Below, in pieces: positions 14,093 through 64,000 of a stretch of 64,000 nt of DNA. Source of the DNA: Candidatus Levyibacteriota bacterium (GTDB lineage: Bacteria > Patescibacteriota > Microgenomatia > Levybacterales > UBA12049); assembly GCA_009695045.1 (NCBI GenBank), contig SIBS01000001.1, positions 106,942-170,941 on the forward strand, written 5' to 3'. Every line of letters starts with the position of its first letter. Position 1 is the first letter of the stretch. Made by a program: the position numbers and the translations under genes. The notes beneath the pieces were generated by a model. That model did not search any database, was not told where the DNA came from, and saw only the letters and a program-made list of their open reading frames with translations.

Positions 14093-14164
14093 AAAAATAT
14101 TATACTTTAATTAATTATTAAAGGAGAATTAAGAAGAATTAGTATATAAAACAAATTAACGTTT

Positions 14165-21129: not shown

Positions 21130-21645
21130 CTAGCTAATTATCTTTTTACCTACTTTAACATTAGATGGCCTAAGTACTTTGTCGTGTAGCATAAATCCTA
21201 GCCTCACTTCTTCGATCACTTTTCCATCATCGCCCTCTACCGTATCAACGCATTCCATTATATGTGGATCAAAATCTTTTCCCTCCACCTGCATCCTTAT
21301 TGCTCCCTCATCTTTTAAGACATCAAGAAATTGCTGTATACTTAATTTTAAGCCTTGATTATCTACATGTTTATTTGCCATTTGCAATGTATCAAGTATT
21401 GGTAAGAGGCTAAGCATGAGCACCTTGTTTCCAGACCTTATCCACTCAATTCGCTCTTCTCGCATTCTTTTTTCTAAATTTTGATAATCAGCTAAAGCTC
21501 TTTTATATAAATTCTCAGATAAAATTGTTTTTTCCATACATTCTTCTAATTCTTTATTTTTATTTTCTACCTGAAGATCATTCACGTCAATAGGCATAAG
21601 CGTATCCTCTAATTCCATCATATTCTTATCTTTTTTCTTATTCAT
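21130..21645 (-). CDS. grpE: Nucleotide exchange factor GrpE
   Basis: Coiled-coil N-terminal region plus a C-terminal beta domain. Position is hrcA-grpE-dnaK. Confidence 0.8.
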   Translation of the reverse strand: MNKKKDKNMMELEDTLMPIDVNDLQVENKNKELEECMEKTILSENLYKRALADYQNLEKRMREERIEWIRSGNKVLMLSLLPILDTLQMANKHVDNQGLKLSIQQFLDVLKDEGAIRMQVEGKDFDPHIMECVDTVEGDDGKVIEEVRLGFMLHDKVLRPSNVKVGKKIIS

Positions 21646-47181: not shown

Positions 47182-48315
47182 TTATAAATAAAGTATTTGA
47201 TGAAATTTATTTATTGTTTTTTTAAGAGAGAATATATTTTTAATTTTCTGCCTACTATATATAAATTTATGTTTATTTTTTAAAATATTTACTACTGATT
47301 CCACAATTGAAATAGTACTATTAGTTTTTATTAACATGCCCATTCCCGATAGCTGTATGGGGACCCTAACGCCTGGAATATTTGTTGCAACAACGGGAAC
47401 ACCACAATACATAGCTTCAACCTGAACCATACCAAAACTTTCAGTAGAATTGATGCTCGGCAATACTAAAACATCTATAACTGAAAAAAAAGAACCTACT
47501 TCTTTATTTTGCAATGCTCCAATGTAGGTAATATTTTTTTCAAATTTCTTTATCAGTTTTTTTATATATAAATTATATTCTTCTTCTCCGTTTAAATTAT
47601 TTGGTCCAGAAATAAGAATCGTAAAATTATTTCCTATTTTTTTAATAAAATATGGGACTGCTTTTAATAAATAATTTAATCCTTTTTCAGATGATATTCG
47701 ACCCAAGAAGCCAATTACATATTTTTTTTTAAAAAATTTATTACTTATCTTTCGTACGGTAATTTTACTAATTCTTGGTGATATTATAGGTGGAATTATA
47801 TATTCAATTTTTTTTAGAAAAAATTTAAGAACTGTCGAATTAACAGCAAAATCATTTGTATTTGTAATTATTTTATCAGATAAAAAACAGACGATAATAT
47901 TAATTAAAATTAATATTATTTCAATAATTTTATTTATTAATCCATCGGCAAGTTTTAATTCACATTGATATATGCAATATATTTTTTTCCTTAAAATTTT
48001 TGCTAAAAATACTGTTACTATTGATTCCGCCTGTGGCAAATGAATAATTACTATATCGCATAATAATAATTGATTAATTACATAAATAGGGTATGAAAAC
48101 ATAATAAATCCTTTATGAAGTTTAAAAGAATATGGAACCCTTATCAAGATAACGCCATTAATATAATCTAGTATTGAAAGATTTTTTTCATGCTGAGAGG
48201 TAAGAATATTTATATTAAATCCTTTTTTTACCAATTCTTCTGCTAGATTTTTTGTATAAATACTAAGACCACTTATGTATGGATAATAATATGTAAGTGT
48301 TATTAGAATTTTCAT
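47182..48315 (-). CDS. GT-B fold glycosyltransferase, family 4 (GT1/GT4 type)
   Basis: The C-terminal EX7E region (ESFGMVQVEAMYCGVPVV) and an N-terminal MKILITLTYYYPYISG are typical of GT4. The start is placed at the internal Met because the longer ORF would overlap the divergent HAD gene. Confidence 0.7.
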   Translation of the reverse strand: MKILITLTYYYPYISGLSIYTKNLAEELVKKGFNINILTSQHEKNLSILDYINGVILIRVPYSFKLHKGFIMFSYPIYVINQLLLCDIVIIHLPQAESIVTVFLAKILRKKIYCIYQCELKLADGLINKIIEIILILINIIVCFLSDKIITNTNDFAVNSTVLKFFLKKIEYIIPPIISPRISKITVRKISNKFFKKKYVIGFLGRISSEKGLNYLLKAVPYFIKKIGNNFTILISGPNNLNGEEEYNLYIKKLIKKFEKNITYIGALQNKEVGSFFSVIDVLVLPSINSTESFGMVQVEAMYCGVPVVATNIPGVRVPIQLSGMGMLIKTNSTISIVESVVNILKNKHKFIYSRQKIKNIFSLKKTINKFHQILYL

Positions 48316-48340
48316 ATGGTAATGATATAATGCATTATAT

Positions 48341-48880
48341 ATGAAAATTGGATTTGATCTAGATGGAGTTTTCATAAATAAACCATACTTTATTCCAAAA
48401 TATATTATTGAAAGACTTTATAGAACTGGAGAAAAAGTTTTAAACTATCGATTTCCAAATAATTTTGAGATATTGATTCGTAAGATTTCTCACAATCCCA
48501 TATTCCGCTCTAAAATTAAAGATAATATTAAATTCATAAATGAATTATCTAGAACAAAAAATAGTCTTTTTCTTATCTCAAGTCGTTTTAGTTTTTTAAA
48601 AAAAGAGACTGAGGAATTAATTATATATAATGGATTTAATAAAATTTTTAAAGGGATTTATATTAATTATCTTAATGCTCAACCACATATTTTTAAAGAT
48701 GAAGTTATAAAAAAAAATAAAATAAATATTTATATAGATGATGATTTTTTACTTATTAAATTTTTGGCAAAAGAAAATAAGCAAACAAAATTTTATTGGC
48801 TAAATAAAAATATTAATAAAAAGATTACAAAAAATCTACTTGCAATAACTAAATTATCGTATATAATACTTTCTCTATGA
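48341..48880 (+). CDS. HAD-superfamily-like hydrolase (putative sugar-phosphate phosphatase)
   Basis: N-terminal MKIGFDLDGV (DxDG motif I) and a C-terminal DDD region. Length 179 aa. Confidence 0.4.
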   Translation: MKIGFDLDGVFINKPYFIPKYIIERLYRTGEKVLNYRFPNNFEILIRKISHNPIFRSKIKDNIKFINELSRTKNSLFLISSRFSFLKKETEELIIYNGFNKIFKGIYINYLNAQPHIFKDEVIKKNKINIYIDDDFLLIKFLAKENKQTKFYWLNKNINKKITKNLLAITKLSYIILSL

Positions 48881-51021
48881 CTATCCTTGATTTTCTTACG
48901 ATAATTCAATGGTGGTCGATTCTTTTTTTATTAGGAGTTATTTTTATCCCAATTACTCAGACAATTTTTTCTTCTTTCTTTGATAAAGGATATGTATTTT
49001 CTAAAGTTATCGGATATTCAGTTTTATCATATGTTATGTTTTTATTATCTATCCTTCATTTTATTCATTTTACTTTTATATCACTACTTTTTATTTTATT
49101 TAATTTAATTATTTTTAATTTTTTAGTGGCAAAAAAAACAAGAACATGGACTTCAATAAGTAGATTAATTCCTCTTTTTATAGCAGAAGAGTTAATTTTT
49201 ATTCTTTGTCTTATTTCATGGTCATTTATAAGAGGGACTCAGCCGGAAATAATAGGTCTAGAAAAATTTATGGATTTTGGATTTGTTAATAGTATCTTAC
49301 GAAGCGAATACTTTCCTCCAAAAGATATGTGGCTTACTCCATATAGCATCAACTATTATTATTTTGGACACCTTATTACAGCTGTATTAACAAAAATTTC
49401 ATTAATAAATCCTAGCATTACTTATAATCTTATGATTGCAACTCTTTTTTCACTCTGCTTTACTCTTTCTTTTTCCTTAGGAACAACTCTTTGCTATCAT
49501 GCTTTTTTAATAAAAAAGGGTGTAATTATAAAAGCAAAAACGCTTTTTTCTTCAGGAATAATTACCGCATTTTTATTAACTCTATCCGGAAACCTACATA
49601 CCATATACTCATTATTTCTTCCGTATACACATGGTTATCCAATTCCAATTGGTGAACTTATTTTTTCTATTAATAATTTTCCAAATCGATATTGGTATCC
49701 AGATGCTACCCGATTTATTTATAATACTATTCATGAATTTCCTATTTATTCATTTGTTGTATCCGATCTACATGGACATGTCATAGATATTCCAATAGTA
49801 ATTACAATAATAGCTATTTTATTGAATGTTTTTTTAATAAAATCTGTTAATAATTATAAACTTATTATTTTAGGATTCTTTATTGCAATTGCCTTCATGT
49901 CTAACGTATGGGATTCATTAATATATTTTTTATTAATAAGCATTTTTATATTTTTGATTGATATTGATAAAAATTATTTGAATATCAATAATTTATTTAA
50001 ATCTGGTAAAAATATATTTATTGTATTTATAACTTTTTTATTATTCTCTTTTCCCTTTTCTTATTATTTTGAACCAAGCTCCTTAGCTCATGGAATTGGT
50101 ATTCTTTGTGCTCCCAAATTTTTAACAGATATTTCCCGTATCGGCCCTTTTTTATTTGAAATCAATCATTGTCAAAAGTCCCCATTTTATCAACTAGCTA
50201 CATTATATGGATTTTTTTATTTTTGGGTTTTATGTTTTTTAGGTTTTCTTTTTATCAAAAGGAGCATTAGGAAAACAGATATTTTTGTACTAATTATTAT
50301 TGGACTAAGCACGATATTAATTATTGTCCCTGAGTTTATCTATATTAAAGATATTTACCCAAATCACTATAGGGCTAATACTATGTTTAAGCTTGTTTAT
50401 CAATCTTTTATTATGCTTTCAATTTCATCATCTTATATCATGATAAGAATCTTGCACTCAGTAAAAAATAACATTGATTATTTTTATAAAAAAGTTATTT
50501 TATTTTTATGTATTATTCTAGGATCATGTCTTATATTAATAGTTAGTGCTTATCCATTTTTTGCAATTCCTTCTTTTTATGGAAAACTTGACTATAAAGG
50601 GCTTGATGGAATCAAATATCTAAAAAAATCATATCCCGATGATTATGAATCAATATTATGGATAAACAAAAATATCAAAGGTCAACCGGTCATACTTGAA
50701 GCACAAGGAGATTCATATACGGAATATGCAAGAATCTCATCAAATACGGGACTTCCTACCTTGCTTGGATGGACAGTCCACGAATGGTTATGGCGAGGAT
50801 CATATGATATCCCATCTCCACGCATTGTGGAAATTAAAAACTTATATGAATCAAATGATATAAGTATAGTAAAAAAATTAATTAAAAAATATTCCATAGC
50901 TTATGTTTTTATTGGATCGCTTGAAAAAAGAAAATATATTAATCTTAATGAAAAAATATTTAATAAATTAGGATTTATTATTTTTAATAAAAAGGGGTCA
51001 AAAATTTACAAAATCTATTAA
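48877..51021 (+). CDS. Giant polytopic membrane protein of the Chlor_Arch_YYY / DUF2298 type (putative GT-C-like glycosyltransferase)
   Basis: 714 aa with more than 15 TMs, a YYY motif (PYSINYYYFGHLI) and a C-terminal extracytoplasmic domain (GLPTLLGWTVHEWLWRG). Confidence 0.5.
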   Translation: MTILDFLTIIQWWSILFLLGVIFIPITQTIFSSFFDKGYVFSKVIGYSVLSYVMFLLSILHFIHFTFISLLFILFNLIIFNFLVAKKTRTWTSISRLIPLFIAEELIFILCLISWSFIRGTQPEIIGLEKFMDFGFVNSILRSEYFPPKDMWLTPYSINYYYFGHLITAVLTKISLINPSITYNLMIATLFSLCFTLSFSLGTTLCYHAFLIKKGVIIKAKTLFSSGIITAFLLTLSGNLHTIYSLFLPYTHGYPIPIGELIFSINNFPNRYWYPDATRFIYNTIHEFPIYSFVVSDLHGHVIDIPIVITIIAILLNVFLIKSVNNYKLIILGFFIAIAFMSNVWDSLIYFLLISIFIFLIDIDKNYLNINNLFKSGKNIFIVFITFLLFSFPFSYYFEPSSLAHGIGILCAPKFLTDISRIGPFLFEINHCQKSPFYQLATLYGFFYFWVLCFLGFLFIKRSIRKTDIFVLIIIGLSTILIIVPEFIYIKDIYPNHYRANTMFKLVYQSFIMLSISSSYIMIRILHSVKNNIDYFYKKVILFLCIILGSCLILIVSAYPFFAIPSFYGKLDYKGLDGIKYLKKSYPDDYESILWINKNIKGQPVILEAQGDSYTEYARISSNTGLPTLLGWTVHEWLWRGSYDIPSPRIVEIKNLYESNDISIVKKLIKKYSIAYVFIGSLEKRKYINLNEKIFNKLGFIIFNKKGSKIYKIY

Positions 51022-51767
51022 TTCTTCTTACCTATAACAAATATTGTGTCTCTTAAGCTAGGAAATATTATCATTAATAAATAATTAATAATTTTGCCCA
51101 CATGAATTAATGGTGAATCAGGGATTAATTTTTCTCTAAAAGGAGTATAACTGATAGTTTTATTCGCTTCATAAATTTGCCATGATTCAGCAGTGATAAT
51201 GCTCATAAGCTCTGGTAATATATACTCCCTATTATGACGGTGATATCTATTGCCACCTTTTCCATTATCTTCTAAAAAAACACTGATTGGATACATTACG
51301 TTTTTACCAAATAACATCATTATTCTATTAATTGATCTCGTTATATTTGGAGTAGTTATCATAATAAATGCTCCCTTCTTAGATACCCTGTATATTTCTC
51401 GGAGTGATGGGATTGGCGATTGTGGCAAATGCTCAATAACTTCATTAAATAAAACTATGTCAAAAAAATTATTATTATATGGAAAATTTTCTTTTTCAAT
51501 ATTTATTATAGAAATATTTTTATTCGTAATTGGTTCATGCTGTGATGCAATTCCATAAACATTATGTCCTAATTCTTCTAGAGCCTTACCAATATGATAT
51601 GGAAAGCAACCAACATCTAGTATTCTTAATTTTTTTTCCTTAGCAATCGATTGCACTTTATTTAAAATGAATCTATATCTCACTTGATGAATTAAAAAAT
51701 AAGACGGGTCTTTTGATTTATTATTATCCTCTTTCAAAGAATTAAGAATCGCATCAATGTTTTTCAT
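51018..51767 (-). CDS. Class I SAM-dependent methyltransferase
   Basis: Motif I ILDVGCFPYHIG and a motif II acidic region (DIVLFNEVIEH). Confidence 0.55.
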   Translation of the reverse strand: MKNIDAILNSLKEDNNKSKDPSYFLIHQVRYRFILNKVQSIAKEKKLRILDVGCFPYHIGKALEELGHNVYGIASQHEPITNKNISIINIEKENFPYNNNFFDIVLFNEVIEHLPQSPIPSLREIYRVSKKGAFIMITTPNITRSINRIMMLFGKNVMYPISVFLEDNGKGGNRYHRHNREYILPELMSIITAESWQIYEANKTISYTPFREKLIPDSPLIHVGKIINYLLMIIFPSLRDTIFVIGKKN

Positions 51768-52842
51768 AAATAGGGGGTATTAGACATATTTTACCTGAAA
51801 TTATGCATGAAATATATGAATTAATTTCTATAAAATTATCTTCTCCCAATCTTGGTATCAATACCCATTGTCCATATTTAGAAATTGGCGGATTAATTAA
51901 GAGCCCATTATGCTTCTCATCGCTATAATCTATTACAAAACTTCTTATTTTTGCCTTTCTCATTTCATTTGCTAATTTAATAAAATCAGCAAACTCTGAT
52001 TGATCAATATCAGTATCTATGCTCTCTTTTATTAAACTATATAATCTAACTATCTTTGTTGGACTAAGAATTGTTTCACTCGAAAATATCTTATCTTTAA
52101 AAGCAGTAATTATTTTTAACTGACGATTGCTTCTGGCAAAATCTGACCCCTCTATGCCAATTGCATGCCTTGACCGTACATAAGTAAGTGCCATTGCTCC
52201 ATTCATATGCAAAATTCCCTTATTAAAATGTATCTTCTTGTATCGACAGGGAAATACATCTACTGGGGGTAATAATATTAAAAGATTTGTAGCTTCTTCC
52301 AAAGAATGATCGCAAAGATTTTCTCGATTTTCCTCAATTGGATATTCAAAATCATCAAAAGCATTTTCAATATTTACATCTAATCCACCAATTAAATCTA
52401 TTGCTTTTATAAAGCCATTGAAATCGATTCTTAACGAATAATCTATTTCTTGACCTATAACTCTTGAGACTACTGCTTTAGCAAATAATAATCCCCCATT
52501 TTTTTTCTCAGATTCTCCGATTGTATATGCTGTATTTATTTTTTGTTTTAAATCTGCAATCCATAAATCACGAGGGATAGACGCCAAAGTCGCAGTTTGA
52601 GTATCGCTATTTAAGCTTACAAAAATAATACTATCTGTGAGATTTGGGCCATCATGCACTCCACCTGCAGATCCAAGAAGTAGAATATTTACTTTATTCA
52701 TTGATTTTTTTAACACTATGTCCTCAGTGAATATAAGCTCATAAATTATGGGGAATAAATGCATATTCTTATTCAAGAATAAACCAATTGCAACAATCAC
52801 TACGATAATAATAATGAGAAATATTTTTCTAAGCATTTTCAA
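51754..52842 (-). CDS. LytR-CpsA-Psr (LCP) family phosphotransferase
   Basis: N-terminal TM, then LLLGSAGG..DGPNLTDSIIFVSLN, SIPRDLW, KINTAY and DLIGGLDV, all matching the LCP core. Confidence 0.75.
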   Translation of the reverse strand: MKMLRKIFLIIIIVVIVAIGLFLNKNMHLFPIIYELIFTEDIVLKKSMNKVNILLLGSAGGVHDGPNLTDSIIFVSLNSDTQTATLASIPRDLWIADLKQKINTAYTIGESEKKNGGLLFAKAVVSRVIGQEIDYSLRIDFNGFIKAIDLIGGLDVNIENAFDDFEYPIEENRENLCDHSLEEATNLLILLPPVDVFPCRYKKIHFNKGILHMNGAMALTYVRSRHAIGIEGSDFARSNRQLKIITAFKDKIFSSETILSPTKIVRLYSLIKESIDTDIDQSEFADFIKLANEMRKAKIRSFVIDYSDEKHNGLLINPPISKYGQWVLIPRLGEDNFIEINSYISCIISGKICLIPPIYEKH

Positions 52843-53488
52843 TCAATCTTCCAAATTCAAGAGGATCTAGGCTTGCCCTGCCTACTAGGGCACCATCTAT
52901 ATTAGCCATTGACGTAAAGCTATTAATATTGCCTGAAGTTACATTTCCTCCATAAATTGCATTGTGTGTGCCTGATTCAATTTTTATTGACTTTATAATC
53001 TTTTCTGCATTTTCAGGGGTATCTGCCTCTCCGGGACTAATTGATGAAGGCGGCTCGTAGGCAACAATATCTACGCTTCTTGGAATATTGACCACTTCTG
53101 GAACACAGTAAATTGAATTTATATTATTTTTTTTTGCTAATTCGATTTGCTGAAATATCATCTCGTCTGTTTCACCAAGCTGTCGTCTTTCTGAATGACC
53201 TACTATAACATAATCAGCAAATTCTTTTAATTGCCCTGCATTTACTTCTCCAGTAAATTTTCCAGAACTAAATGGAGAAATAGATTGTGCTCCCAGATTT
53301 ATAGGGAGTTGCAATTGATTTATTCTATCTTTAATTATTGGTAGAAAAATAAATGTCGGACAAAGAATAATATTTATATTTTTTGAGATAATAATATCTC
53401 TATATAAAGCCATTTTATTTAACCATTCTAATGCTTCAAATGTTCCCTTGTTTGACTTCCAATTAGCTACAATAAAAAGCTTTTTCAT
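52829..53488 (-). CDS. tpiA: Triosephosphate isomerase
   Basis: IVANWKSNKG, VIVGHSERR and the C-terminal GG...G loop motifs. The start is placed at the internal MKKLFIVANWK because the longer ORF overlaps the divergent helicase gene. Confidence 0.85.
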   Translation of the reverse strand: MKKLFIVANWKSNKGTFEALEWLNKMALYRDIIISKNINIILCPTFIFLPIIKDRINQLQLPINLGAQSISPFSSGKFTGEVNAGQLKEFADYVIVGHSERRQLGETDEMIFQQIELAKKNNINSIYCVPEVVNIPRSVDIVAYEPPSSISPGEADTPENAEKIIKSIKIESGTHNAIYGGNVTSGNINSFTSMANIDGALVGRASLDPLEFGRLIENA

Positions 53489-53534
53489 ATGATACAATTG
53501 CTCTACCGCAGGTGTAATGTAAATATTATACTCT

Positions 53535-55373
53535 ATGAATGAAGACTTGCTCAAGGACTTAAATGATCAACAACAAAAAGCGGTTAAGCAAATTGATGGC
53601 CCCATGGTTATCCTAGCAGGAGCTGGTAGTGGAAAAACAAGAGTAATTACATCCAAGGTTAGATACATGATTGAAAAAGGTATCGATCCTTCTTCTATTC
53701 TGTGTGTTACTTTCACAAATAAAGCAGCTATGGAAATGAAAGAACGACTTTCAAATTATTTTCAAAAAATTACACCAGGAGCAAGGCCTACAGTTGCTAC
53801 ATTTCATTCTATTTGTGCGAAGATATTACGCATTGATGGAGAACATATTGGCATCGATCCATCTTACGTTATATATAATGAACAAGATCAAATAGATGCA
53901 CTTAAAGATGCTATGAATAAATTAGGGATTTCTATAAAAGATTTCAAACCATCATCTATGTTATCTATCATCTCTCAAGCAAAAAATGAATTAATTACAC
54001 CCTCATCATATAGATCTATTGCGCAAGGATTATTTCAACAAACAGCTTCAAGTATATATTCTCTTTATCAAGTAATACTAAAAGAAAATAACGCATTAGA
54101 TTTTGATGATATTCTATTAAAAGCAGTTGCACTATTTAGGGAAAGCGCAGTTATATTAGAAAAATGGCAAAACAAGTTTCATTATATTTTAATTGATGAA
54201 TATCAAGACACCAATCATGCACAATATGTATTTACAAAATTTCTTGCTTCAAAGAGAAATAATATTTGCGTTGTAGGAGACTTCTCGCAAAGTATCTATA
54301 GTTGGAGAGGTGCTGACTTTAATAATCTTAAAAAGATTACTAAAGATTTCCATGATACAAATGAATTTTCTTTATCACAAAATTATCGCTCGACTCAAAA
54401 AATTCTTCAAGCAGCTTTTTCTGTTATCAACAGAAACACTTCTCATCCAATCTTAGAACTCTGGACAGATAATCAAGAAGGAGATGATATTCATATTCAT
54501 GAAGCGAAAAATGAACTTTCTGAAGCAGAGTTTATTATCACTCAGATTGAATCTCAGCGTTATCAAGGAAAAATTAATTATTCAGATATTGCTATACTTT
54601 ATCGAACAAACGCTCAATCACGTGTAATAGAAGAAGTGCTTCTTCATCACGGAATGCCATATATTTTAGTAGGTGGCACAAGATTTTATGACAGAAAAGA
54701 AATAAGAGATGTATTAGCTTATTTAAGAATGGTTCAAAATCCAAAAGACAATGTATCTAGAAAGCGTATTGAAAAGCTAGGAAAAGGTCGCTATCAAAAG
54801 TTTCTTATTTTTGAAGAATCATTTTCTTCAAAAAATAAATCAACTATAGAAATTCTTGATGAAGTTATAAAGAATACTGATTATTTAAAATTATATGATG
54901 AAAATAATGAAGAAGACAAAGACCGTTTAGAAAATATAAAAGAACTTAGATCAGTTGCAATTGAATTCTCTGAATTGCCAAACTTTTTAGAAAATGTTGC
55001 TCTTGTACAAAATACAAATATGCCAGATGATAAAGATGATGAAGAAAATAAAAATGCAATAACCCTCATGACACTTCATGCAGCAAAAGGATTAGAGTTT
55101 TCCATAGTTTTCATGATAGGAATGGAGGAGGGTCTTTTTCCCCATAATAGAGCATTGATGGATAAAAATGAATTAGAAGAAGAACGTCGACTCTGCTATG
55201 TTGGCATTACTCGAGCAATGAAAAAATTATATTTTACATATGCGCAAAGGAGACTATTTTTTGGTCATAGATCATCGAATACCGTATCGCGATTCATAAT
55301 GGAATTACCAGAAAATGTTATAGAAAAAAATCTTAACAAAATAGAACAAGAAAAAAGATATTTCTATGATTAG
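53535..55373 (+). CDS. UvrD/PcrA-type SF1 DNA helicase
   Basis: Walker A AGAGSGKT, motif II ILIDEYQDTN, motif III VGDFSQSIYSWRGA and motifs V and VI (VGITRAMKKL). Confidence 0.85.
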   Translation: MNEDLLKDLNDQQQKAVKQIDGPMVILAGAGSGKTRVITSKVRYMIEKGIDPSSILCVTFTNKAAMEMKERLSNYFQKITPGARPTVATFHSICAKILRIDGEHIGIDPSYVIYNEQDQIDALKDAMNKLGISIKDFKPSSMLSIISQAKNELITPSSYRSIAQGLFQQTASSIYSLYQVILKENNALDFDDILLKAVALFRESAVILEKWQNKFHYILIDEYQDTNHAQYVFTKFLASKRNNICVVGDFSQSIYSWRGADFNNLKKITKDFHDTNEFSLSQNYRSTQKILQAAFSVINRNTSHPILELWTDNQEGDDIHIHEAKNELSEAEFIITQIESQRYQGKINYSDIAILYRTNAQSRVIEEVLLHHGMPYILVGGTRFYDRKEIRDVLAYLRMVQNPKDNVSRKRIEKLGKGRYQKFLIFEESFSSKNKSTIEILDEVIKNTDYLKLYDENNEEDKDRLENIKELRSVAIEFSELPNFLENVALVQNTNMPDDKDDEENKNAITLMTLHAAKGLEFSIVFMIGMEEGLFPHNRALMDKNELEEERRLCYVGITRAMKKLYFTYAQRRLFFGHRSSNTVSRFIMELPENVIEKNLNKIEQEKRYFYD

Positions 55374-56412
55374 TAAGGATATAAACGATAATAAATTACA
55401 AAATAAACTTATTAATCATCCACTTCAATCATTTGAATGGGGTAAATTTAGAGAGAAAACTGGCCTAAAAGTAATACGTCGTTGCTTGTATAAAAACGGG
55501 GAGCCAATTTTTGCTTATCAATTAACAATTCATCCAATTCCCAGAATTGGCTGGAATATTGGATATCTTCCAAAAGGAAATTTTACAAATCAAGAATTAT
55601 TAGAAGATCTCAAGATTATAGGAAAAAGAGAGAATTGTATTTTTATCCAAATTGAACCAAATATTATACGTGGAAAAAATAAAGAAGAAGAAGAATTTGA
55701 AATACTATTAAAGGAAAACTCTAAATTAACTTTGTCTGCTCATCCATTATTTACTAAATTTTCATTTATATTAGACATTGTTCCAGGAGAAGATGAATTA
55801 CTTAAAAAAATGCATTCAAAAACACGATATAATATTAATTTATCCCAAAGAAAAGGTATTACAATCACAGAAGAAGTTTCTGATGATGCATTTAAAAAAT
55901 ATCTAAAGCTAATGGATGACACAACCACTAGGCAAAGCTTTTATTCGCATACGAGAGAGTATCATCAAACTCAATGGAATATACTTAAAAATCAGGACAA
56001 AGAAGTGAATGCCCTAAGATCACATTTATTTATTGCTTGGTATACAGATGAGAATAAAAATAAAATTCCTCTTGTTGCATGGATTTTATTTAAATTTAAA
56101 AATACACTTTACTATCCCTATGGAGCATCAAGCAGTATGCATCGCGAAACTATGGCATCAAATCTTATTATGTGGGAGGCGATTCTTTTTGGCAAAAAAA
56201 ATGGGTGCATTAATTTTGATATGTGGGGAGCGCTTGGGCCAACGCCAAATACAGAAGACCCATGGTATGGTTTTCATAAATTTAAAGAAGGATATGGCGG
56301 AGAATTAGTTGAATATATAGGAAGTTATGATTTTATTCTTAATGATATTTTTTATAAACTATATAAACTAGTAGATAAAATACGGTGGTTTATTTTAAAA
56401 ATTAAAAAATAA
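55366..56412 (+). CDS. FemAB-family peptidyltransferase (peptidoglycan interpeptide bridge formation, FemX-like)
   Basis: About 350 aa with the GNAT-like duplicated fold typical of FemABX, including the segment WEAILFGKKNGCINFDMWGA. Confidence 0.6.
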   Translation: MISKDINDNKLQNKLINHPLQSFEWGKFREKTGLKVIRRCLYKNGEPIFAYQLTIHPIPRIGWNIGYLPKGNFTNQELLEDLKIIGKRENCIFIQIEPNIIRGKNKEEEEFEILLKENSKLTLSAHPLFTKFSFILDIVPGEDELLKKMHSKTRYNINLSQRKGITITEEVSDDAFKKYLKLMDDTTTRQSFYSHTREYHQTQWNILKNQDKEVNALRSHLFIAWYTDENKNKIPLVAWILFKFKNTLYYPYGASSSMHRETMASNLIMWEAILFGKKNGCINFDMWGALGPTPNTEDPWYGFHKFKEGYGGELVEYIGSYDFILNDIFYKLYKLVDKIRWFILKIKK

Positions 56413-56413
56413 A

Positions 56414-58012
56414 ATGCAAAAAATATTAAATAGAATTGAAAAAATACATATACTTTATATTGTAATTTTTTTATTTTCACTTTCATTTATTTCATACGGA
56501 AATACTTTGGGAAACAGCCTCTTCTTCGATGATGAAGATTTTATTTATAAAAATATTTACGTTCAGAAATTTTCCATCGTAGATATATTTACTCACAATC
56601 TTATCGCTGGTGCAGGAAAAATAAGCAATTATTATCGTCCAGTATTATCCATCATATATTCTATTATTTATAGTATTTCCATGGACAATGGTATGCTTTA
56701 TCATCTTGCTGGAATCATTTTACATGCTGGTACTGGAACTGCTCTATTTTTATTATTAAAAAAAATGTTTTCATCTACTGGAATAGCGCTTATTTCATCG
56801 GTGATTTTTATTATCCATCCAATAAATACAGAGGCTGTAGCATATGCATCTGGAATAAATGATCCATTATCTTCTCTCTTTATGATTTCTACAATAATTA
56901 TTTCATTAGGCAACAATAAATACAAAAAAATTATCTCTGCATTTTTATTTACCATCGCACTTCTAAGCAGGGAGACTGCCATCATTACTCCAGCACTCAT
57001 ATTTATAATTTTTCTTTTCGAAACAAAATCTATAAAAGAAACATTTATAAAAACAAAAAGCATAATACCTCTTATAATTATCGCGCTATTATATTTTTTA
57101 CTAAGATTAACTATTCTTAATTTTCAGAATACTTTAAATTTTTTTCCTGTTGCAACGGCATATTCTACAAATATTATATTTAGAGTATTAACTTTTTTTT
57201 CTATTATTCCTGAATATATTGCACTTATTTTTTTTCCAAAGACATTAAACATTGAACGGGAAGTTCCAGTAGTAATTTCATATTTTTCCAAAATATCTTT
57301 TTTTATAATAATTATGCTTATTGGTATCTTTGATCTATGTCTAAAATATTTCAATAAATATCCCGTATTTCTTTTCTCTTTTTTATGGTTTTTTATAACT
57401 ATCTCGCCAACAATGGGAATCATTCCAATCAATGGAATAATGTATGAACATTTTCTATATTTATCATCGATTGGTATTTTTTTACCATTTTCTTTTTGTT
57501 TTATAACTGTTTTAAAAAAGATTTCAAATAAATCTGCCATTTTAATTACTTTCTTATTATTGATATTTTTAATTGGACTCATCATTAGAACTATTAATCG
57601 AAATAATGACTGGAATAATCCAATAACTTTCTATACACAAACTATAAAAATAAATTCAAATAGTGCAAGATTGCATAATAATTTAGCAATGGCTTTTGCA
57701 GAAAATAAACAAAATAAAGAAGCGATTAAGGAATATAAAGAAGCAATTAGAATAAATGATATCTATGCAGAGACACATTTCAACCTTGCTAATTCTTATG
57801 TGGGCATAAATGATTTGAAAAATGCTGAAGCAGAATATAAAAAAGCCCTAGAAATAAATCCTCTTTTTTTACGAGGATATACAAATCTTGTTTCACTTTA
57901 TAAATATCAAAAAAGGAATAAAGATAAAGAAGAAATAATAAAATATGTAAATAAAATAGCAGAAAAAAATAAAGAGATATTACCATTCATAAAGTATCTT
58001 AAGGGTTTATAA
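56414..58012 (+). CDS. GT-C-like polytopic membrane protein with C-terminal TPR repeats (TMTC/DUF1736-like putative O-mannosyltransferase)
   Basis: About 11 TMs. Loop-1 acidic motif FFDDEDFIY. C-terminal TPR repeats (AMAFAENKQNKEAIKEYKEAIRIND..., FNLANSYVGINDLKNAEAEYKKALEINP). Confidence 0.5.
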   Translation: MQKILNRIEKIHILYIVIFLFSLSFISYGNTLGNSLFFDDEDFIYKNIYVQKFSIVDIFTHNLIAGAGKISNYYRPVLSIIYSIIYSISMDNGMLYHLAGIILHAGTGTALFLLLKKMFSSTGIALISSVIFIIHPINTEAVAYASGINDPLSSLFMISTIIISLGNNKYKKIISAFLFTIALLSRETAIITPALIFIIFLFETKSIKETFIKTKSIIPLIIIALLYFLLRLTILNFQNTLNFFPVATAYSTNIIFRVLTFFSIIPEYIALIFFPKTLNIEREVPVVISYFSKISFFIIIMLIGIFDLCLKYFNKYPVFLFSFLWFFITISPTMGIIPINGIMYEHFLYLSSIGIFLPFSFCFITVLKKISNKSAILITFLLLIFLIGLIIRTINRNNDWNNPITFYTQTIKINSNSARLHNNLAMAFAENKQNKEAIKEYKEAIRINDIYAETHFNLANSYVGINDLKNAEAEYKKALEINPLFLRGYTNLVSLYKYQKRNKDKEEIIKYVNKIAEKNKEILPFIKYLKGL

Positions 58013-58205: not shown

Positions 58206-58280
58206 TCCGTGATAGCTCAACGGTAGAGCAGGTCGCTGTTAACGACAAGGTTCTAGGTTCGAATCCTAGTCGCGGAGCCA
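58206..58280 (+). tRNA. tRNA-Asn (anticodon GTT), CCA-encoded
   Basis: Manual fold: acceptor TCCGTGA/TCGCGGA (one G-U pair), D-stem GCTC/GAGC, anticodon loop CTGTTAA, T-arm CTAGG-TTCGAAT-CCTAG, discriminator G, then CCA. Confidence 0.85.
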
Positions 58281-59726
58281 GAGTTGATTATCTGCGTAAT
58301 TTAGTATTGTATCAAAGGGTTTTAGCCCGTCATATCGGACTAATTTACCTTCTACTCTAAGATTCGATAGTACGAGCTTGATTAACTGCCTTCTTTCCTC
58401 AACTTCCGAACTTTTGAAAAGCTCGTAAGCCCGATTTGACAGTTCTAACAGGTATTTAGCCGTGATGTAGTAGTTGTCTTCGGCTTCTTGTAGCATAGCA
58501 AGACGAGTATCAATATCTGCTATTTGCTCACGGAAGGACTGATAAAACTTGTCATACTCATCGTCAGTAATACGCCCTTTGAGCTTATCCAAGTAAAGAT
58601 TATCCATCATATTTGTAATAGTTGCGTGTTCTTTGGTTAATTTTTCGAATTGCTTATTGTGAAAGTCCATCTTGTCTTGGTGTACTGTGTTTAGGTTTTC
58701 AACTATTTGCTCCAAAACCCAATCGGGAAGCTGTAGACGCTTGAATACATTGCCTACCTGCTCGGTTATAGTGTCCTCTCGTAGCCACTGTGCCCCATGT
58801 TTGCCGTTGTATTGCGTACAATGGTAATAAATAATTCCCTTGTGCTTTTCAGGAGTTATAGAAAGCCCACAATGCCCGCATCTTAGTAATCCTCGGTACA
58901 TATAAGATAAGCCTGCAAACTTATATCTCTTTTTATTAAACCCTGCTTTTATTTTTTGAACTTGGTCAAATAAGGCTTTGGTAATAATAGGTGGGTATTT
59001 GTGAGGATATAACTTTTTATTCCATACCATCATGCCATAGTAAAACGGGTCTTTGAGGTATTTATCGGTAAGACCATGAGACCAATCAACTCCATATTCT
59101 TCTTTTAACTTCTTGCGTAATAAATCCATTGAAAAACTGCCCGTTGCATACCATTCGTAGGCTTTTTGGATTATGCGAGAGGCAAGCTCGTCAACTACTA
59201 TTTCAGTTTTGTCCTTGCTTATAGGAACTCGTTTATATCCATACGAGGGCTTGCTGGGATATGTACCCATTCTTAGCATTTGTTCTTGTGCCCTTTTTAC
59301 ATTGTCGCTAATAGCGTCAGAGTAGTATTTTGCAAGACCAAGGCTAATACTGAAATTAAACTTTTCAACTGCGGATAACTGGCTATTGATAACTTGTCCG
59401 TCTGATACAAAGTGAAGTTCTACCTCATCTTTTAGGGCTTTATCGTATAGCGTAGAAACCCGTTTATCAAAAATGTTACGGGATAATCTATCTACCTTGT
59501 CAAAGCAAACTGCTATTTTTTCTTTTTGGTCAAGAACAAAATCAAGGATACTGTCAAAATCACTACGCTGGGTTTTATATGCACTTTCATCAAAACTAAA
59601 CTCTTTAAGTATTTCAAAGTTTTTATTTTGACCATACTTCTTCATTCTAGCCAATTGAGCAGGTAGCGAGTTATTGGCTTCTTTTTGTTCTTCTGTTGAT
59701 ACCCTAGCTATTATTATTGCTTTCAT
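58266..59726 (-). CDS. Large serine recombinase (resolvase/invertase-type N-terminal catalytic domain, recombinase domain, zinc ribbon)
   Basis: N-terminal AIIIARVSTEEQ (catalytic Ser) and DRLSR. A C-terminal Cys cluster (LRCGHCG...YYHCTQY) and a coiled coil. The stop codon lies inside the tRNA-Asn 3' end (15-nt overlap). Confidence 0.85.
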   Translation of the reverse strand: MKAIIIARVSTEEQKEANNSLPAQLARMKKYGQNKNFEILKEFSFDESAYKTQRSDFDSILDFVLDQKEKIAVCFDKVDRLSRNIFDKRVSTLYDKALKDEVELHFVSDGQVINSQLSAVEKFNFSISLGLAKYYSDAISDNVKRAQEQMLRMGTYPSKPSYGYKRVPISKDKTEIVVDELASRIIQKAYEWYATGSFSMDLLRKKLKEEYGVDWSHGLTDKYLKDPFYYGMMVWNKKLYPHKYPPIITKALFDQVQKIKAGFNKKRYKFAGLSYMYRGLLRCGHCGLSITPEKHKGIIYYHCTQYNGKHGAQWLREDTITEQVGNVFKRLQLPDWVLEQIVENLNTVHQDKMDFHNKQFEKLTKEHATITNMMDNLYLDKLKGRITDDEYDKFYQSFREQIADIDTRLAMLQEAEDNYYITAKYLLELSNRAYELFKSSEVEERRQLIKLVLSNLRVEGKLVRYDGLKPFDTILNYADNQLWLRD

Positions 59727-59731
59727 TTTTA

Positions 59732-62700
59732 TTATGAATAATTTCTTGTTCCCTTACAGTAGGGAAACCTTGAACAACCGTAAAACTTTCCACGACGACC
59801 ATTTCGAAGAATCATAGGGGAATTACAGCGTGGGCAGGCTGTGTCAGTTAGAATAGGCGCTGGTCTTGGTGCAGATGTTGTTTGGTAGACACTGATATTT
59901 TTACATTTGTTACAAAACCTTCCGTAACCAGTAATTAAAGATGCGTCTTTAAAATCACTTGTTGACCTCACCTCTTTGCATTTGGGGCACTCTCTCATAT
60001 CTCCATTTTGTAATCCCTCAATCGTCCCATGTATGTTTTGGAGAAGAGAGTTAGCATTTTCTGGGTTTTTGAGTAAGTTTCCAATCCTATCATCAATGCT
60101 CGCTATCGGATTTTGTCCGCTATTAAATTTATTAATTCGCAAGAACTTATATCCGTAACTCTCTAATACTTTTTGACGATATACGTCATCATCGGAATAA
60201 TAATCCTTATAGTTAAACTCGTTTACTTCATCAACTTCTTTGAAGTGCTCTTGAAAACCATCATATTCAATAATGATTTTGTGTTCTTTGTGACGCTCGT
60301 CGGTGTAGATAAGAAGAAAATCAACCTTGTAGGCTGGATGTGTATATGTACGGTCTAATTGTTTGAGATATTTGCCTATTTCAAATTGGGGCATAAACTC
60401 AATAGAATTTTTATGTTCTTTCCAAAAATTTGTTTGATAAAACCAATTCAAAACTTCTGGTTCCATCTTGGACTTTTCATCAACCTCTGAAACAGAATGC
60501 TCTTTTCGAGCTTCCTCTAACATATACTGGTAATGTCTCAACGCCTCTCCTGCAGAGCCTGTAAAGTCTTCAAGGGGCTTACTTAATACAAAATGAACAC
60601 ACTCCTTGGCACGACTAAAGCCAACGTTCAAACGCTGTGCTTTTATCTGACCGTCCTCTTCAACATCAACATTGCTTAAATCTTTGATGAACACGCCCCA
60701 AAGCTTGTCACTGTGGGTAGATGCGACCATTGAATAGTAGATAACATCACGCTCTTCACCTTGGCACGTATCAAAAGTCATTATCTTGAGTTGCAATTTG
60801 TCTTGAAAATAATCCCATTCTGGCATTTTGCCTATCATTTCTACTAACAGCTTCTGTTGATTTGTATGCGGTGTAATAATGCCAACGCTTATTGCCTTAT
60901 CTTCATCTTTTAGTCGTTTTAGTTCAGAAACAATAAACTCAACCTCTTTAGCATTGGTATTAGGATAAAGCTCATCGGCAGAAGTGGCCTTAACATGTGA
61001 GAACTTAATAACCTCATCTATGGATTTCCCACGAATTTTCATTACCTGCAAACTATCTTGGTAGAAATACTTATTCGAATAAGAGATGATTTCCTTATAA
61101 CCTCTAAAATGTTTTAGTAATTGGATGTTGTAATTACTGATGAACCCAAAAAACTCGAGGATGGAGGTTTTAATGTTAAATTTATGCAGCCTCTCTAATT
61201 TGATTGCATCAGTGGAAATGTTAGCTCTAAAGCTAGTATTTAGTCCATTGAGGTATTCACGATTAGTATCGCCTCTTGCTTGTGCAGCTTTGATGTTGCT
61301 AAATTGTTTTTTATCTCCAAGAATAAGCACTTTTTTTGCTCGCAAGAGAGCAGGGAATGCTTGCGCTATGCTTACTTGCGACGCTTCATCAATTACTACT
61401 AAATCAAATAGCTCTGGCTCTAGGGGAATATATTCTGCGTAGTCTCGTATGCCCGCTAAAATACATGGGAACGCTTCTTTAAGCTTCTTGAACTCTTCCC
61501 TTGGAAATCTCTGTTTTTTTTTAATGATATTGCGTAATGTTTGAGCGTCACTACTATTATGTTCGTAGAAATCAATTAACCGTCCGTCAAGAAGATATGT
61601 TACTTGAGTTGTAACCAAATCTTCAATTTGTTTCATGCGAGCTGCGTAATTTAGCTCGTGGATATTAGAAAAATCTCTACTCACTTTTTGGTTTAAGTTC
61701 AAATATCTTATTTGCTTATCAAACTCCAATTCAACAGTGTCTATGACAGCGTTACTAGTTATCGTAGTGAATTGTTCAGCGTTGATACCTATTTTTTTAG
61801 CTGTTTTTGGATATTTCCCAATGGTTTCTTTGATGTACTTGATGTCTTCGTCCAAGGCAATGATTGTCTCGACTGTCTGCATTATTGTCTCGTCCGTAAG
61901 GAGTTTGTGAGCAAGTGCTATGTAGTCAAAATTCCTCCTGCTTTTTTCGTTTATCTCATCACCAAATTTTTGAGCCGAGTCCAAAATTTCGTGTGCATCT
62001 TTCAGCTCTTGGAGCTGGTCGTGAGGGATGGAGAACGTGCTGTGAATAAAATTTTTCTTGAAACTTACATCTAGTTTCTCTGCTTGTTTTTTACTGAATA
62101 AATAACCGATTGCCCAAAGCTTCATTTTTGAATACTTTTGAATGAAGTGTTCGAGTTCTTGCAAGTCCTTTGAAGTAAATTGTGTGAATTTATTTACAGC
62201 AGCAATTTTGTTTGAGAAGGTCGTTTTTATTTTTTGGATGCCTTCAATTGCCAATGCCAAGAATTGTAAGAAGCTTTCGTAATCAGAGAGCGTTTTTATG
62301 GTCTTTGGATTTAAGGCTAGAAGCTCAAACAGTTTCATCGTTTTGTTAGAAGTGAGCGTGTTTTTGATTTGCCGTAACGAACCTCGCAAGTCTCCAAATT
62401 CAATGGCAGATTCGTTATGTTGTGATAGCTCTTCTATGTCGAAGATTAAATCTTTCTCATTAAAATAAAGTTCTAAATCAAAAAACTCCTGAATTTCTTT
62501 AATGTTTATATCGCTGTAAGCGACAATCTCGGCCTCGATGTCTTCTCTTAAAGAATTGCCAGACTTTGTAATTGTTTCTTCTATCGAATCGTAATCTCTT
62601 TTTACCGCGCGATGGTGTGTTTTAATTCCTTCAATGGCGCTTTGAGCAAGAATTGAATTATATGTATTGCCAGTTTTACCAAGTCTTAGAATTGGGTTTT

Positions 62701-64000
62701 GAAAATTTTTATCATAGCGAACCTTATTCATTGTCTGAGTAATCTTGTCTTCAACAACGTCCAAGGCCTCTTTTTTGTCAGAAAGAACCAATACTGACTG
62801 ATTTTTCAAGATTGCATCAAAAATTATTGCTGTAATAGTGTGACTTTTTCCAGTTCCTGGTGGCCCTGAAACTACCAGATAATTACAGCCGTCTTTACGA
62901 ATAGCAGACAAGATTTGACGCTGTTCGCTATTGAGTGGGATTGGACTTGAATACACAAGCCTATCTGGCGTTTCAGTGTTATCCCATTCATCTTCAACTT
63001 CTGGGTTAGAAGTTTCAGGATTGTTTCGGATAAAGTCATCTATCAGCTTATTGAAGATTTCTGCAAGGTTACCCCCTTCTTGCATTAACTGTTGCAGAAT
63101 TTCCTCGTAGTCATTTACTAATGCTTCATCTGACTTATCGAACAAGCAGATATAATTGCTATTAGAAATTCGTACTGATGCCCCTCGGGCAGTTATCGGT
63201 TCCCCATTTGAGAAGTCTACTGTATCTTCAAGCTCAAAAAAATGAGAGAGTTCATTTAATATGCCATTGATAATTTGAGGAAAATCTTCCTGATGTTGAG
63301 ACAAATACACAATGCGCTCCGAGATGGTTTGTAAACTGCCTTTTGTTCCTTTTATTGCATTATGTTCTTGTACGATAAACTCAAGCGCTTTTTTATTTAT
63401 GTACACCTGTGAATCAAATTCTATATTTAGGGTGTCTCCATCCCTTGTGGTCGCAAAAGGAATATAGAAAATTGGGTATTTATTGTTGTTGAAAGATATG
63501 TCACCAAAATACAGATAAAAGTCCTGCTTGTCTAAAATAGTTTTATTGCGCTCCATTTCAAATAATTCCAGAAACAAATCAGCCACTTGGAGGTTTTCAA
63601 AAAATGAAGTAAGGTTGCCTTTTACATCTTGAGGTACAAAAACAGATTTGAGTTCTTTTGTAAGGTTAACCTTTTCTTGAGCGATAATGAGATTTAATAC
63701 TTCTGAAATCTTGTTTTCTAACAAACGAAGGATTACTGATGTTAGCTCTTCCTCAATCAGATATACGTTATCTTCATCACCTAAATTAAGATTTTGTAGA
63801 GGTTTTTCGATGCTTTCGACGAACGGATGAACGAGTTCACTGCGGATAATTTTTGTAGCTTCTTCTACAGAATTTGTAAGCGCTACATCATATTCTTTTG
63901 CATATAAAGTACCTGCTTTTTCTATCTCACTGGCGACCTGTTCAGTAATTGCGTTAATTTCTGCAGTGCTAATCTTACTAACTTGAAGTTTTATTAAATC
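59732..64000 (-). CDS. Giant multidomain protein (>1422 aa, N-terminus beyond the window): DUF4011-like region, Upf1/DNA2-type SF1 helicase, DUF559/Vsr-like (REase_MTES_1575-like) endonuclease-fold domain, and two topoisomerase-type C4 zinc ribbons. Candidate Nhi-like nuclease-helicase.
   Basis: The ORF track begins at an internal TTG. Manual translation of 63725-64000 shows the frame stays open to the edge (...DEDNVYLIEEELTSVILRLLENK...). Walker A VVSGPPGTGKSHTI. Motif II VVIDEASQ plus GDKKQ. QGEERDVIY and VGFSRAKE (AAA_12-like). VDFLLIY...IIIEYDGFQEH...YGYKFLRI (DUF559-like). CPRCNSPMILRNGRRGKFYGCSRFPYCKGTR (zf-C4_Topoisom-like). Confidence 0.8.
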   Translation of the reverse strand, partial: DLIKLQVSKISTAEINAITEQVASEIEKAGTLYAKEYDVALTNSVEEATKIIRSELVHPFVESIEKPLQNLNLGDEDNVYLIEEELTSVILRLLENKISEVLNLIIAQEKVNLTKELKSVFVPQDVKGNLTSFFENLQVADLFLELFEMERNKTILDKQDFYLYFGDISFNNNKYPIFYIPFATTRDGDTLNIEFDSQVYINKKALEFIVQEHNAIKGTKGSLQTISERIVYLSQHQEDFPQIINGILNELSHFFELEDTVDFSNGEPITARGASVRISNSNYICLFDKSDEALVNDYEEILQQLMQEGGNLAEIFNKLIDDFIRNNPETSNPEVEDEWDNTETPDRLVYSSPIPLNSEQRQILSAIRKDGCNYLVVSGPPGTGKSHTITAIIFDAILKNQSVLVLSDKKEALDVVEDKITQTMNKVRYDKNFQNPILRLGKTGNTYNSILAQSAIEGIKTHHRAVKRDYDSIEETITKSGNSLREDIEAEIVAYSDINIKEIQEFFDLELYFNEKDLIFDIEELSQHNESAIEFGDLRGSLRQIKNTLTSNKTMKLFELLALNPKTIKTLSDYESFLQFLALAIEGIQKIKTTFSNKIAAVNKFTQFTSKDLQELEHFIQKYSKMKLWAIGYLFSKKQAEKLDVSFKKNFIHSTFSIPHDQLQELKDAHEILDSAQKFGDEINEKSRRNFDYIALAHKLLTDETIMQTVETIIALDEDIKYIKETIGKYPKTAKKIGINAEQFTTITSNAVIDTVELEFDKQIRYLNLNQKVSRDFSNIHELNYAARMKQIEDLVTTQVTYLLDGRLIDFYEHNSSDAQTLRNIIKKKQRFPREEFKKLKEAFPCILAGIRDYAEYIPLEPELFDLVVIDEASQVSIAQAFPALLRAKKVLILGDKKQFSNIKAAQARGDTNREYLNGLNTSFRANISTDAIKLERLHKFNIKTSILEFFGFISNYNIQLLKHFRGYKEIISYSNKYFYQDSLQVMKIRGKSIDEVIKFSHVKATSADELYPNTNAKEVEFIVSELKRLKDEDKAISVGIITPHTNQQKLLVEMIGKMPEWDYFQDKLQLKIMTFDTCQGEERDVIYYSMVASTHSDKLWGVFIKDLSNVDVEEDGQIKAQRLNVGFSRAKECVHFVLSKPLEDFTGSAGEALRHYQYMLEEARKEHSVSEVDEKSKMEPEVLNWFYQTNFWKEHKNSIEFMPQFEIGKYLKQLDRTYTHPAYKVDFLLIYTDERHKEHKIIIEYDGFQEHFKEVDEVNEFNYKDYYSDDDVYRQKVLESYGYKFLRINKFNSGQNPIASIDDRIGNLLKNPENANSLLQNIHGTIEGLQNGDMRECPKCKEVRSTSDFKDASLITGYGRFCNKCKNISVYQTTSAPRPAPILTDTACPRCNSPMILRNGRRGKFYGCSRFPYCKGTRNYS

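Follow-up and report, generated by a model that had tools for sequence, protein, structure and literature searches.

A giant helicase-nuclease gene as candidate defense cargo of a tRNA-Asn serine-integrase island in Candidatus Levybacteria

We analyzed 64,000 nucleotides (nt) of contig SIBS01000001.1 (positions 106,942 to 170,941; here called the window) from a Candidatus Levyibacteriota bacterium, whose last kilobases are occupied by a very long gene on the reverse strand (here called the giant gene). We propose that this gene codes for an ATP-driven, single-polypeptide helicase-nuclease and that it is an exchangeable, defense-type cargo of a serine-integrase island inserted at a tRNA-Asn gene in Candidatus Levybacteria, a reading to which we assign a probability of about 0.6. 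The predicted superfamily 1B (SF1B)-type ATPase and Vsr-type nuclease of the protein are intact and strongly constrained, the gene sits on a mobile island, and in sister islands its place is taken by unrelated genes, among them classical restriction-modification (R-M) systems.

In bacteria of the Candidate Phyla Radiation (CPR), which do not grow on their own in culture and whose genomes measure only about 1 Mb, the immune repertoires are poorly charted. A gene of 4.5 kb that has stayed intact and strongly conserved in them, and has repeatedly passed from one to another, must be worth its cost, and defense against phages or plasmids is its most likely biological role, at somewhat better than even odds. 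If this is true, a widespread helicase-nuclease family that PADLOC v2, NCBIfam 2026, and Pfam do not recognize would be added to the known defense enzymes, and a large, sensor-like N-terminal domain would come with it. Single-gene defense candidates are numerous; the wide spread in CPR bacteria, the N-terminal domain, and the cargo-slot backbone make the giant gene a worthwhile experimental target.

An intact gene of 1,516 codons

The open reading frame (ORF) listed for the giant gene in the window has 1,330 amino acids (aa) and starts at the first in-frame TTG (63724), which is an artifact of the ORF rule. The frame (Table 1) is stop-free over 1,422 codons, up to the window edge, bearing out an earlier interpretation made from the letters of the window alone (here, the sequence-only reading), according to which it stays open for at least 92 codons past the listed ORF. 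Such a long open frame in DNA of about 36% GC would be far beyond chance. Extra copies were retrieved from the Logan assemblies by exact-match look-up of the neighboring recombinase, and positions 58251 to 64000 of the window were 100% identical in two independent assemblies (L082/L088 and L083). On the 14,253-bp contig L088, the gene is complete and codes for 1,516 aa (L088:8222-12772), with the shared part 100% identical; the start codon lies 282 nt past the window edge, and 94 N-terminal codons are missing from the window. All the assemblies examined were identical, and neither a frameshift nor an internal stop appeared in any copy, which speaks against a pseudogene, a case considered in the sequence-only reading.

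Table 1. Features of the giant gene and of the adjoining island end (window coordinates; residues in full-length numbering)
Feature	Position	Strand	Remarks
tRNA-Asn(GTT), integration target	58206..58280	+	ARAGORN, Rfam; overlaps the 3' end of the integrase gene
Large serine integrase	58266..59726	-	Pfam Resolvase + Recombinase + Zn_ribbon_recom; PHROG 95 integrase, E 1.8e-70
Giant helicase-nuclease gene	59732..64000	-	C-terminal 1422 of 1516 codons plus stop codon (59732-59734)
Second C4 zinc ribbon, topoisomerase I type	59741..59839	-	Pfam Zn_ribbon_Top1; topoisomerase I (Topo I) matches in PDB
First C4 zinc ribbon (CPKC...CNKC)	59900..59989	-	Four Cys in 59/61 homologs, gap in the other two
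Vsr/DUF559/MTES_1575-type PD-(D/E)xK nuclease module	60077..60403	-	D1321, E1339, D1341, H1346, R1369, K1371
Helicase motifs II-VI (end of RecA1 and RecA2)	60587..61489	-	DEASQ, GDKKQ, QGEERD, VGFSRAK; AAA_12
RecA1 insertion, at the position of Upf1-like 1B/1C accessory domains	61691..62422	-	Fast-evolving; residues ~600-860
Helicase RecA1, first part	62423..62935	-	Walker A GPPGTGKS and motif Ia; Pfam AAA_11/AAA_30
N-terminal domain, family-specific	62948..64000	-	Residues 95-445; residues 1-94 outside the window

Helicase core and nuclease module

The giant protein belongs to the Upf1-like SF1B helicases, with Walker A, DExx, and motifs III, V, and VI distributed over two RecA domains. Pfam detects AAA_11 (60 bits) and AAA_12 (65 bits), both over the cutoff of 27, and the profile of the family matches Upf1, IGHMBP2, and Sen1 in the PDB, in agreement with the Upf1-type SF1 helicase that had been read from the sequence. 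In 61 full-length homologs, with identities down to 34%, Walker A (whose lysine is K385 in the window fragment and K479 in the full-length protein) and helicase motifs II to VI are both invariant (61/61). The RecA1 insertion evolves about three times faster, with a column identity of 0.30 to 0.47 against 0.7 to 0.97 elsewhere in the protein. Its divergence proceeds in step with that of the core (r=0.90), and we therefore ruled out that it is a swapped cassette.

The nuclease module scores 17.8 bits with the Pfam profile MTES_1575, under the cutoff of 38.2. However, hhalign against a canonical DUF4011/DUF3320 protein gave a co-linear alignment from helicase motif II to the MTES_1575 domain (99% probability, E 6.5e-18), and D1321, E1339-x-D1341-G, H1346, R1369, and K1371 are invariant in the same 61 homologs. 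By its fold and its D...ExDG..H...D..R..LE..G..LR signature, the module is a member of the Vsr/DUF559/REase_MTES_1575 group, and the DUF559/Vsr-like nuclease of the sequence-only reading stands. MTES_1575 was defined as a new restriction endonuclease (REase) domain of the Vsr family, which occurs in conflict systems in fusion with SF-I helicases (PMC3710099).

Of the two zinc ribbons that follow, the first forms short beta hairpins in the AlphaFold 2 model, while the second matches Zn_ribbon_Top1 (PF01396) with 43.3 bits against a cutoff of 32 and is a topoisomerase I ribbon, as had been supposed. All eight zinc-ligand cysteines are invariant wherever the ribbons occur among the 61 homologs. 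All the motifs quoted in the sequence-only reading (GPPGTGKSHTI, DEAS, QGEERD, FSRAK, VDFLL...IIEYDGFQEH...YGYKFLRI, and the two CxxC...CxxC ribbons) are indeed present.

The C-terminal accessory module of the family is exchangeable, and the Topo-type ribbon is optional, being found in 7 of 32 distant relatives. In the close homologs P0029, P0033, P0041, P0042, P0118, and P0026, it is replaced by a WYL domain or by TPR repeats, one of these proteins reaching 1,994 aa. WYL domains are sensors of nucleic acids or ligands and are common in defense systems.

A family-specific N-terminal domain

The N-terminal ~450 residues, made up of a helical bundle and a beta-sheet subdomain, are specific to the giant-gene family. 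The DUF4011-like label given to the protein by the sequence-only reading had to be dropped, since DUF4011 (PF13195) has no Pfam match in the query, in P0001, or in 120 close (precomputed) and 32 distant homologs, and hhalign between the N-terminal profile and a canonical DUF4011 region gave a probability of 0.06%. An exhaustive search of 1.84 billion representatives recovered the domain in about 290 clusters (50% identity), almost always at residues ~95 to 450 of proteins of 1,300 to 1,715 aa. It is conceivable, at odds just short of even, that the giant gene is the founding member of an undescribed single-protein defense family formed by these ~290 clusters, centered on CPR/Patescibacteria and spread to many phyla, in which the ~450-aa N-terminal domain, lacking a known fold relative, would be a new kind of infection sensor, coupled to the Upf1-type motor and the Vsr-type nuclease, and which would travel in the defense-cargo slot of CPR serine-integrase islands for which we found no description.

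A genomic island at tRNA-Asn

The giant gene is located inside a tRNA-integrated genomic island that carries a large serine integrase, whose gene lies 5 nt downstream of it. The core of the attachment (att) site carried by the island consists of the last 30 nt of tRNA-Asn (58251-58280). The overlap of this tRNA with the integrase gene, a step in GC content at the tRNA (from 0.23-0.29 up to 0.35-0.39), and two independent contigs that stop exactly at 58251, with the 30-nt tRNA 3' end, identify a tRNA-integrated island, and the recombinase-mobilized island put forward in the sequence-only reading is upheld. The giant gene had also been described as its sole cargo, which does not hold, since L088 carries further island genes upstream of it. 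At 5 nt upstream, there is an excisionase-like HTH_17 gene, followed by the genes for a 372-aa protein, a SpoVG-like protein, and three small ORFs, and beyond these by a 916-aa protein, a 2-hydroxyacid dehydrogenase, and an ankyrin-repeat protein, the whole stretch being at island-like GC. No second att copy was found within the 14.2 kb of L088, and the island runs beyond that stretch. The HTH_17, giant, and integrase genes are separated by 5-nt gaps with no terminator-like sites between them, and promoter, terminator, and Rfam scans detected nothing beyond the tRNA.

Neither the 916-aa protein (L088:2161-4911, minus strand, divergent from the backbone genes) nor the 372-aa protein has relatives in Pfam, PHROGs, or PDB; an identical copy of the latter is annotated in a metagenome-assembled genome of Candidatus Levybacteria. 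The host flank (window 48000-58000) has a GC content of 0.22 to 0.33 and codes for UvrD, FemAB, triosephosphate isomerase, LytR_cpsA_psr, DUF2298, and a TPR protein, a content that fits a small-genome CPR bacterium.

The cargo slot is exchanged among sister elements

The 372-aa protein has 1,578 homologs (64 to 89% identity), marking a large family of CPR elements, of which we sampled eight further members (L090, L092, L094, L096, L100, L104, L107, and L110). Every sampled element keeps the same gene order, namely, SpoVG-like protein, 372-aa protein, HTH_17, a cargo slot, and serine integrase (L088:6646-8216 and 12778-14238 in the element of the window). Identity to the window's element is 60 to 66% for the SpoVG-like protein, 65 to 71% for the 372-aa protein, 70 to 91% for HTH_17, and 62 to 85% for the integrase. 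The slot is filled by the giant helicase-nuclease gene in the window (L088) and in L001, by a complete type I R-M system (HsdM, HsdS, and HsdR) in L092, by an MmeI-type single-chain R-M enzyme in L110, by an EcoRI-type methylase with a GmrSD/HNH enzyme in L096-L099 and L104-L106, by an RrnaAD methyltransferase in L090, L091, L100-L103, and L107-L109, and by two small ORFs in L094. The giant gene is thus dispensable for the element, and its position elsewhere carries classical restriction systems. The window integrase shares 79 to 85% identity with its counterparts from elements whose cargo differs and 62% with that of L001, whereas the giant genes of the window element and L001 are 90% identical; therefore, the cargo has moved between backbones.

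A conserved mobile backbone with a variable defense position beside the integrase is also found in P4-like satellites, pipolins, and SCCmec-linked islands (PMC11551731, PMC11470126), although the backbone described here is specific to CPR bacteria. We found no description of an element with the order SpoVG-like protein, 372-aa protein, HTH_17, and serine integrase in the searched literature. Its exchangeable slot beside the integrase offers a practical route to mine CPR defense genes.

These comparisons also bear on what else the giant gene might be. The sequence-only reading had left the choice between a defense or anti-plasmid system and an enzyme for the processing of the element, and of these two the former is the better supported. 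A helicase-nuclease serving the replication, excision, or processing of the island itself would fit a gene placed between the excisionase-like HTH_17 and the integrase, on an island where no other recognizable helicase is encoded. However, at least eight sampled sister lineages with an orthologous backbone do without the gene and have unrelated cargo in the slot, and most family members are found in unrelated contexts that lack the SpoVG-like/372-aa backbone. The slot comparison largely refutes this role, which we regard as very unlikely.

Even harder to credit is a housekeeping function in host DNA repair or recombination. In Pseudomonas, certain genes of the DUF4011 type belong to the core genome, and helicase-nuclease fusions such as DNA2 and AddAB are known to act in repair. 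The giant gene, however, lies in an island of foreign GC with a tRNA att site at its boundary; sister elements lack it, and its contexts vary. Its patchy distribution across phyla, at 45 to 90% identity, does not fit vertical descent, and no conserved syntenic chromosomal position was seen throughout Levybacteria.

It could also be argued that the gene is a weapon or addiction module of the island, excluding competing mobile elements or plasmids, or stabilizing the island, with no protection of the host against phages. In line with this, it is always found on islands or variable regions, it has been transferred between backbones, and in the window element it is read in one close-packed row with the excisionase-like gene and the integrase gene, spaced by 5 nt and uninterrupted by terminator-like sites. 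By sequence alone, such a module is indistinguishable from host defense, but in other elements the slot is occupied by classical R-M systems, whose action extends to any incoming DNA, and we consider a purely island-serving role quite improbable.

In several loci, a second large serine recombinase (528 to 602 aa) is found directly upstream of the backbone (L001:4329-6104, L091:5172-6854, L094:5305-6912, L100:3415-5223, and L110:3751-5337), often after DUF5659 and small ORFs, which suggests tandem island arrays at one site.

Comparison with known defense systems

We compared the giant protein with named defense families through PADLOC v2 and NCBIfam profiles. In PADLOC, the best named profiles were PDC-S37, MkoC/MkoA, and Hhe, and in NCBIfam they were ProA and Hhe. 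All these matches were partial, confined to the helicase, and far under the cutoffs; the PADLOC check suggested in the sequence-only reading thus returned partial matches to PDC-S37, MkoC/MkoA, and Hhe and full-length matches to none.

The nearest validated analog is Hhe (Gao et al. 2020; NF042953, PDLC02194), which likewise combines, in one large polypeptide, a Upf1-like SF1 helicase with an endonuclease of the Vsr family at the C terminus. Hhe is a validated defense protein, and mutation of its nuclease site abolishes defense (bioRxiv 10.1101/2022.06.16.496414). However, the NCBIfam score of the giant protein is 99.5 bits against a cutoff of 2000 and covers residues 839 to 1140 only, and the PADLOC match (E 1e-21) is limited to the RecA2 half. 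In addition, the giant protein has ~1516 aa, compared to about 1800 to 1900 positions in the Hhe profile, has no detectable DUF4011, and differs in its N-terminal domain and in its two extra C-terminal ribbons. A similar relationship was found with the DUF4011/AAA_11/AAA_12/REase_MTES_1575/DUF3320 proteins (Anantharaman et al. 2013, PMC3710099), in which the C-terminal half of the helicase and the nuclease are homologous and co-linear, while in the giant protein DUF4011 is missing and the zinc ribbons stand in place of the DUF3320/winged-helix-turn-helix tail.

PDC-S37, a PADLOC candidate, resembles the giant protein in total length (1550 positions), and their helicase regions are co-linear, but the match reaches 142 bits and spans only profile positions 600 to 1245 of the 1550, too little for membership. 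The similarity to ProA (NF058533; 159 bits versus a cutoff of 1500) is limited to the helicase core, also placing the giant protein outside that family, and among the 32 distant family representatives none scored better than E 8e-53. The analogy with Nhi drawn in the sequence-only reading proved misplaced. Nhi (Bari et al. 2022) shares the concept of single-protein nuclease-helicase defense, but it is a protein of about 610 aa whose HsdR-like nuclease is N-terminal and whose SF1 helicase is of the DUF2075 type (PMC11232893). The domain order is thus reversed and the families are others, and Nhi did not appear among the PADLOC matches.

The Mokosh proteins MkoC (type II) and MkoA (type I) (Millman et al. 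2022) have a Upf1-like COG1112 helicase as well, and the MkoC profile aligns to residues 175 to 1152 of the window fragment with 133 bits, a score insufficient for membership. The defining nuclease of Mokosh is of the PLD family, whereas that of the giant protein is of the Vsr/PD-(D/E)xK type; no PLD domain was found in the giant protein, which is therefore not a Mokosh type II protein. The resemblance of the helicase to Mokosh, together with that of the nuclease fold to RAP domains, raises the alternative of a defense enzyme directed against RNA or RNA-DNA hybrids, in which a motor working in the manner of Mokosh and Upf1 would move along phage transcripts or R-loops and the Vsr-fold domain, similar to RAP, would serve as an RNase. 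We find this rather unlikely, considering that the module aligns to the MTES_1575/Vsr DNA nucleases with all catalytic residues present, that the terminal ribbon is of the single-stranded-DNA-binding type of topoisomerase I, and that the nuclease that defines Mokosh is absent.

Judging from these profile matches, the giant protein does not belong to Hhe, Mokosh, ProA, or PDC-S37, and it would extend a known type, single-protein defense by a helicase plus a Vsr-type nuclease. A literature search for ProA, PDC-S37, or the giant-gene CPR family found no description.

Proposed mechanism

For a defense enzyme directed against DNA, we infer the substrate, polarity, trigger, and phenotype from what is known of related families. 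The C-terminal zinc ribbons, the last of them of the topoisomerase I type, would hold single-stranded DNA, the Upf1-type SF1B motor would translocate 5' to 3' with ATP, and the adjoining Vsr/MTES_1575-type nuclease would nick or cleave the tracked DNA. The N-terminal domain and the RecA1 insertion may sense the trigger or maintain auto-inhibition, and the small helix-turn-helix protein encoded just upstream in about 22% of the loci might control expression. In this way, phage or plasmid DNA would be destroyed while it replicates, an outcome also proposed for Hhe.

Distribution and genomic neighborhoods of the family

The giant-gene family comprises more than 2,200 clusters at 90% identity, mostly of 1,510 to 1,530 aa, and its core architecture of N-terminal domain, helicase, and Vsr-type nuclease is universal. 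We found the gene in 80 species-level genomes, at 40 to 90% identity, of which ~29 are labeled as Patescibacteria lineages. Carriers outside this group, on large contigs, include Gammaproteobacteria, Bdellovibrionales, Bacillota, and other phyla, and a Priestia megaterium plasmid codes for a relative at 34% identity. An origin in phages was rejected, with no full-length relative in 50,697 phage records and only 2 loci in 2.9 million IMG/VR contigs.

Neighbor clustering across 82 loci revealed no fixed partner gene, and a serine recombinase lies within 10 kb of the giant gene in only 24 loci, at varying positions. Recurrent neighbors are serine and tyrosine integrases, tRNA genes, ParB-methylases, DUF2130 and DUF2779-like nucleases, and OLD-family, AAA_13, and SMC-like ATPases. 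Proteins known to PADLOC also recur nearby, namely, SoFic, MzaA, GajA/OLD-like proteins, and PDC candidates. The small regulator gene found directly upstream in part of the loci is of the XRE type in 8 and of the HTH_17 type in 7. Its divergence roughly parallels that of the giant gene, which suggests that both form an optional two-gene cassette. Directly downstream of the giant gene, there is a DUF2779-like gene (PD-(D/E)xK plus RNase H-like) in L004, L005, L079, and L067 (+1 gene), or a DUF2130 gene in L025, L038, L040, and L064 (+1 gene), sometimes overlapping the giant-gene stop codon; these pairings may represent two-gene subtypes.

Many contigs with the giant gene are only 4.6 to 5.7 kb long, barely exceeding the gene (e.g., L021, with a recorded coverage of about 451x, L023, L027, L028, L041, and L063). 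A circular replicon or transposon of ~5 kb was considered and rejected, as no terminal overlaps were found, and these contigs are likely the product of assembly breaks at strain-variable island junctions. Another short contig, L017 (6.7 kb), codes for an XRE protein, the giant gene, and a 491-aa PDDEXK_9-like protein and is bounded by a perfect 127-nt terminal inverted repeat (L017:1-127 and 6611-6737). The length of this repeat equals a common assembler k-mer, and it may be an artifact of the assembly graph or else a real inverted-repeat flank. The only relative for which both island ends were found is L016, where a 20-nt direct repeat of the tRNA-Glu 3' end (4880-4899 and 21179-21255) bounds an island of ~16.3 kb containing a family member, a 946-aa SMC-like protein, and a serine recombinase.

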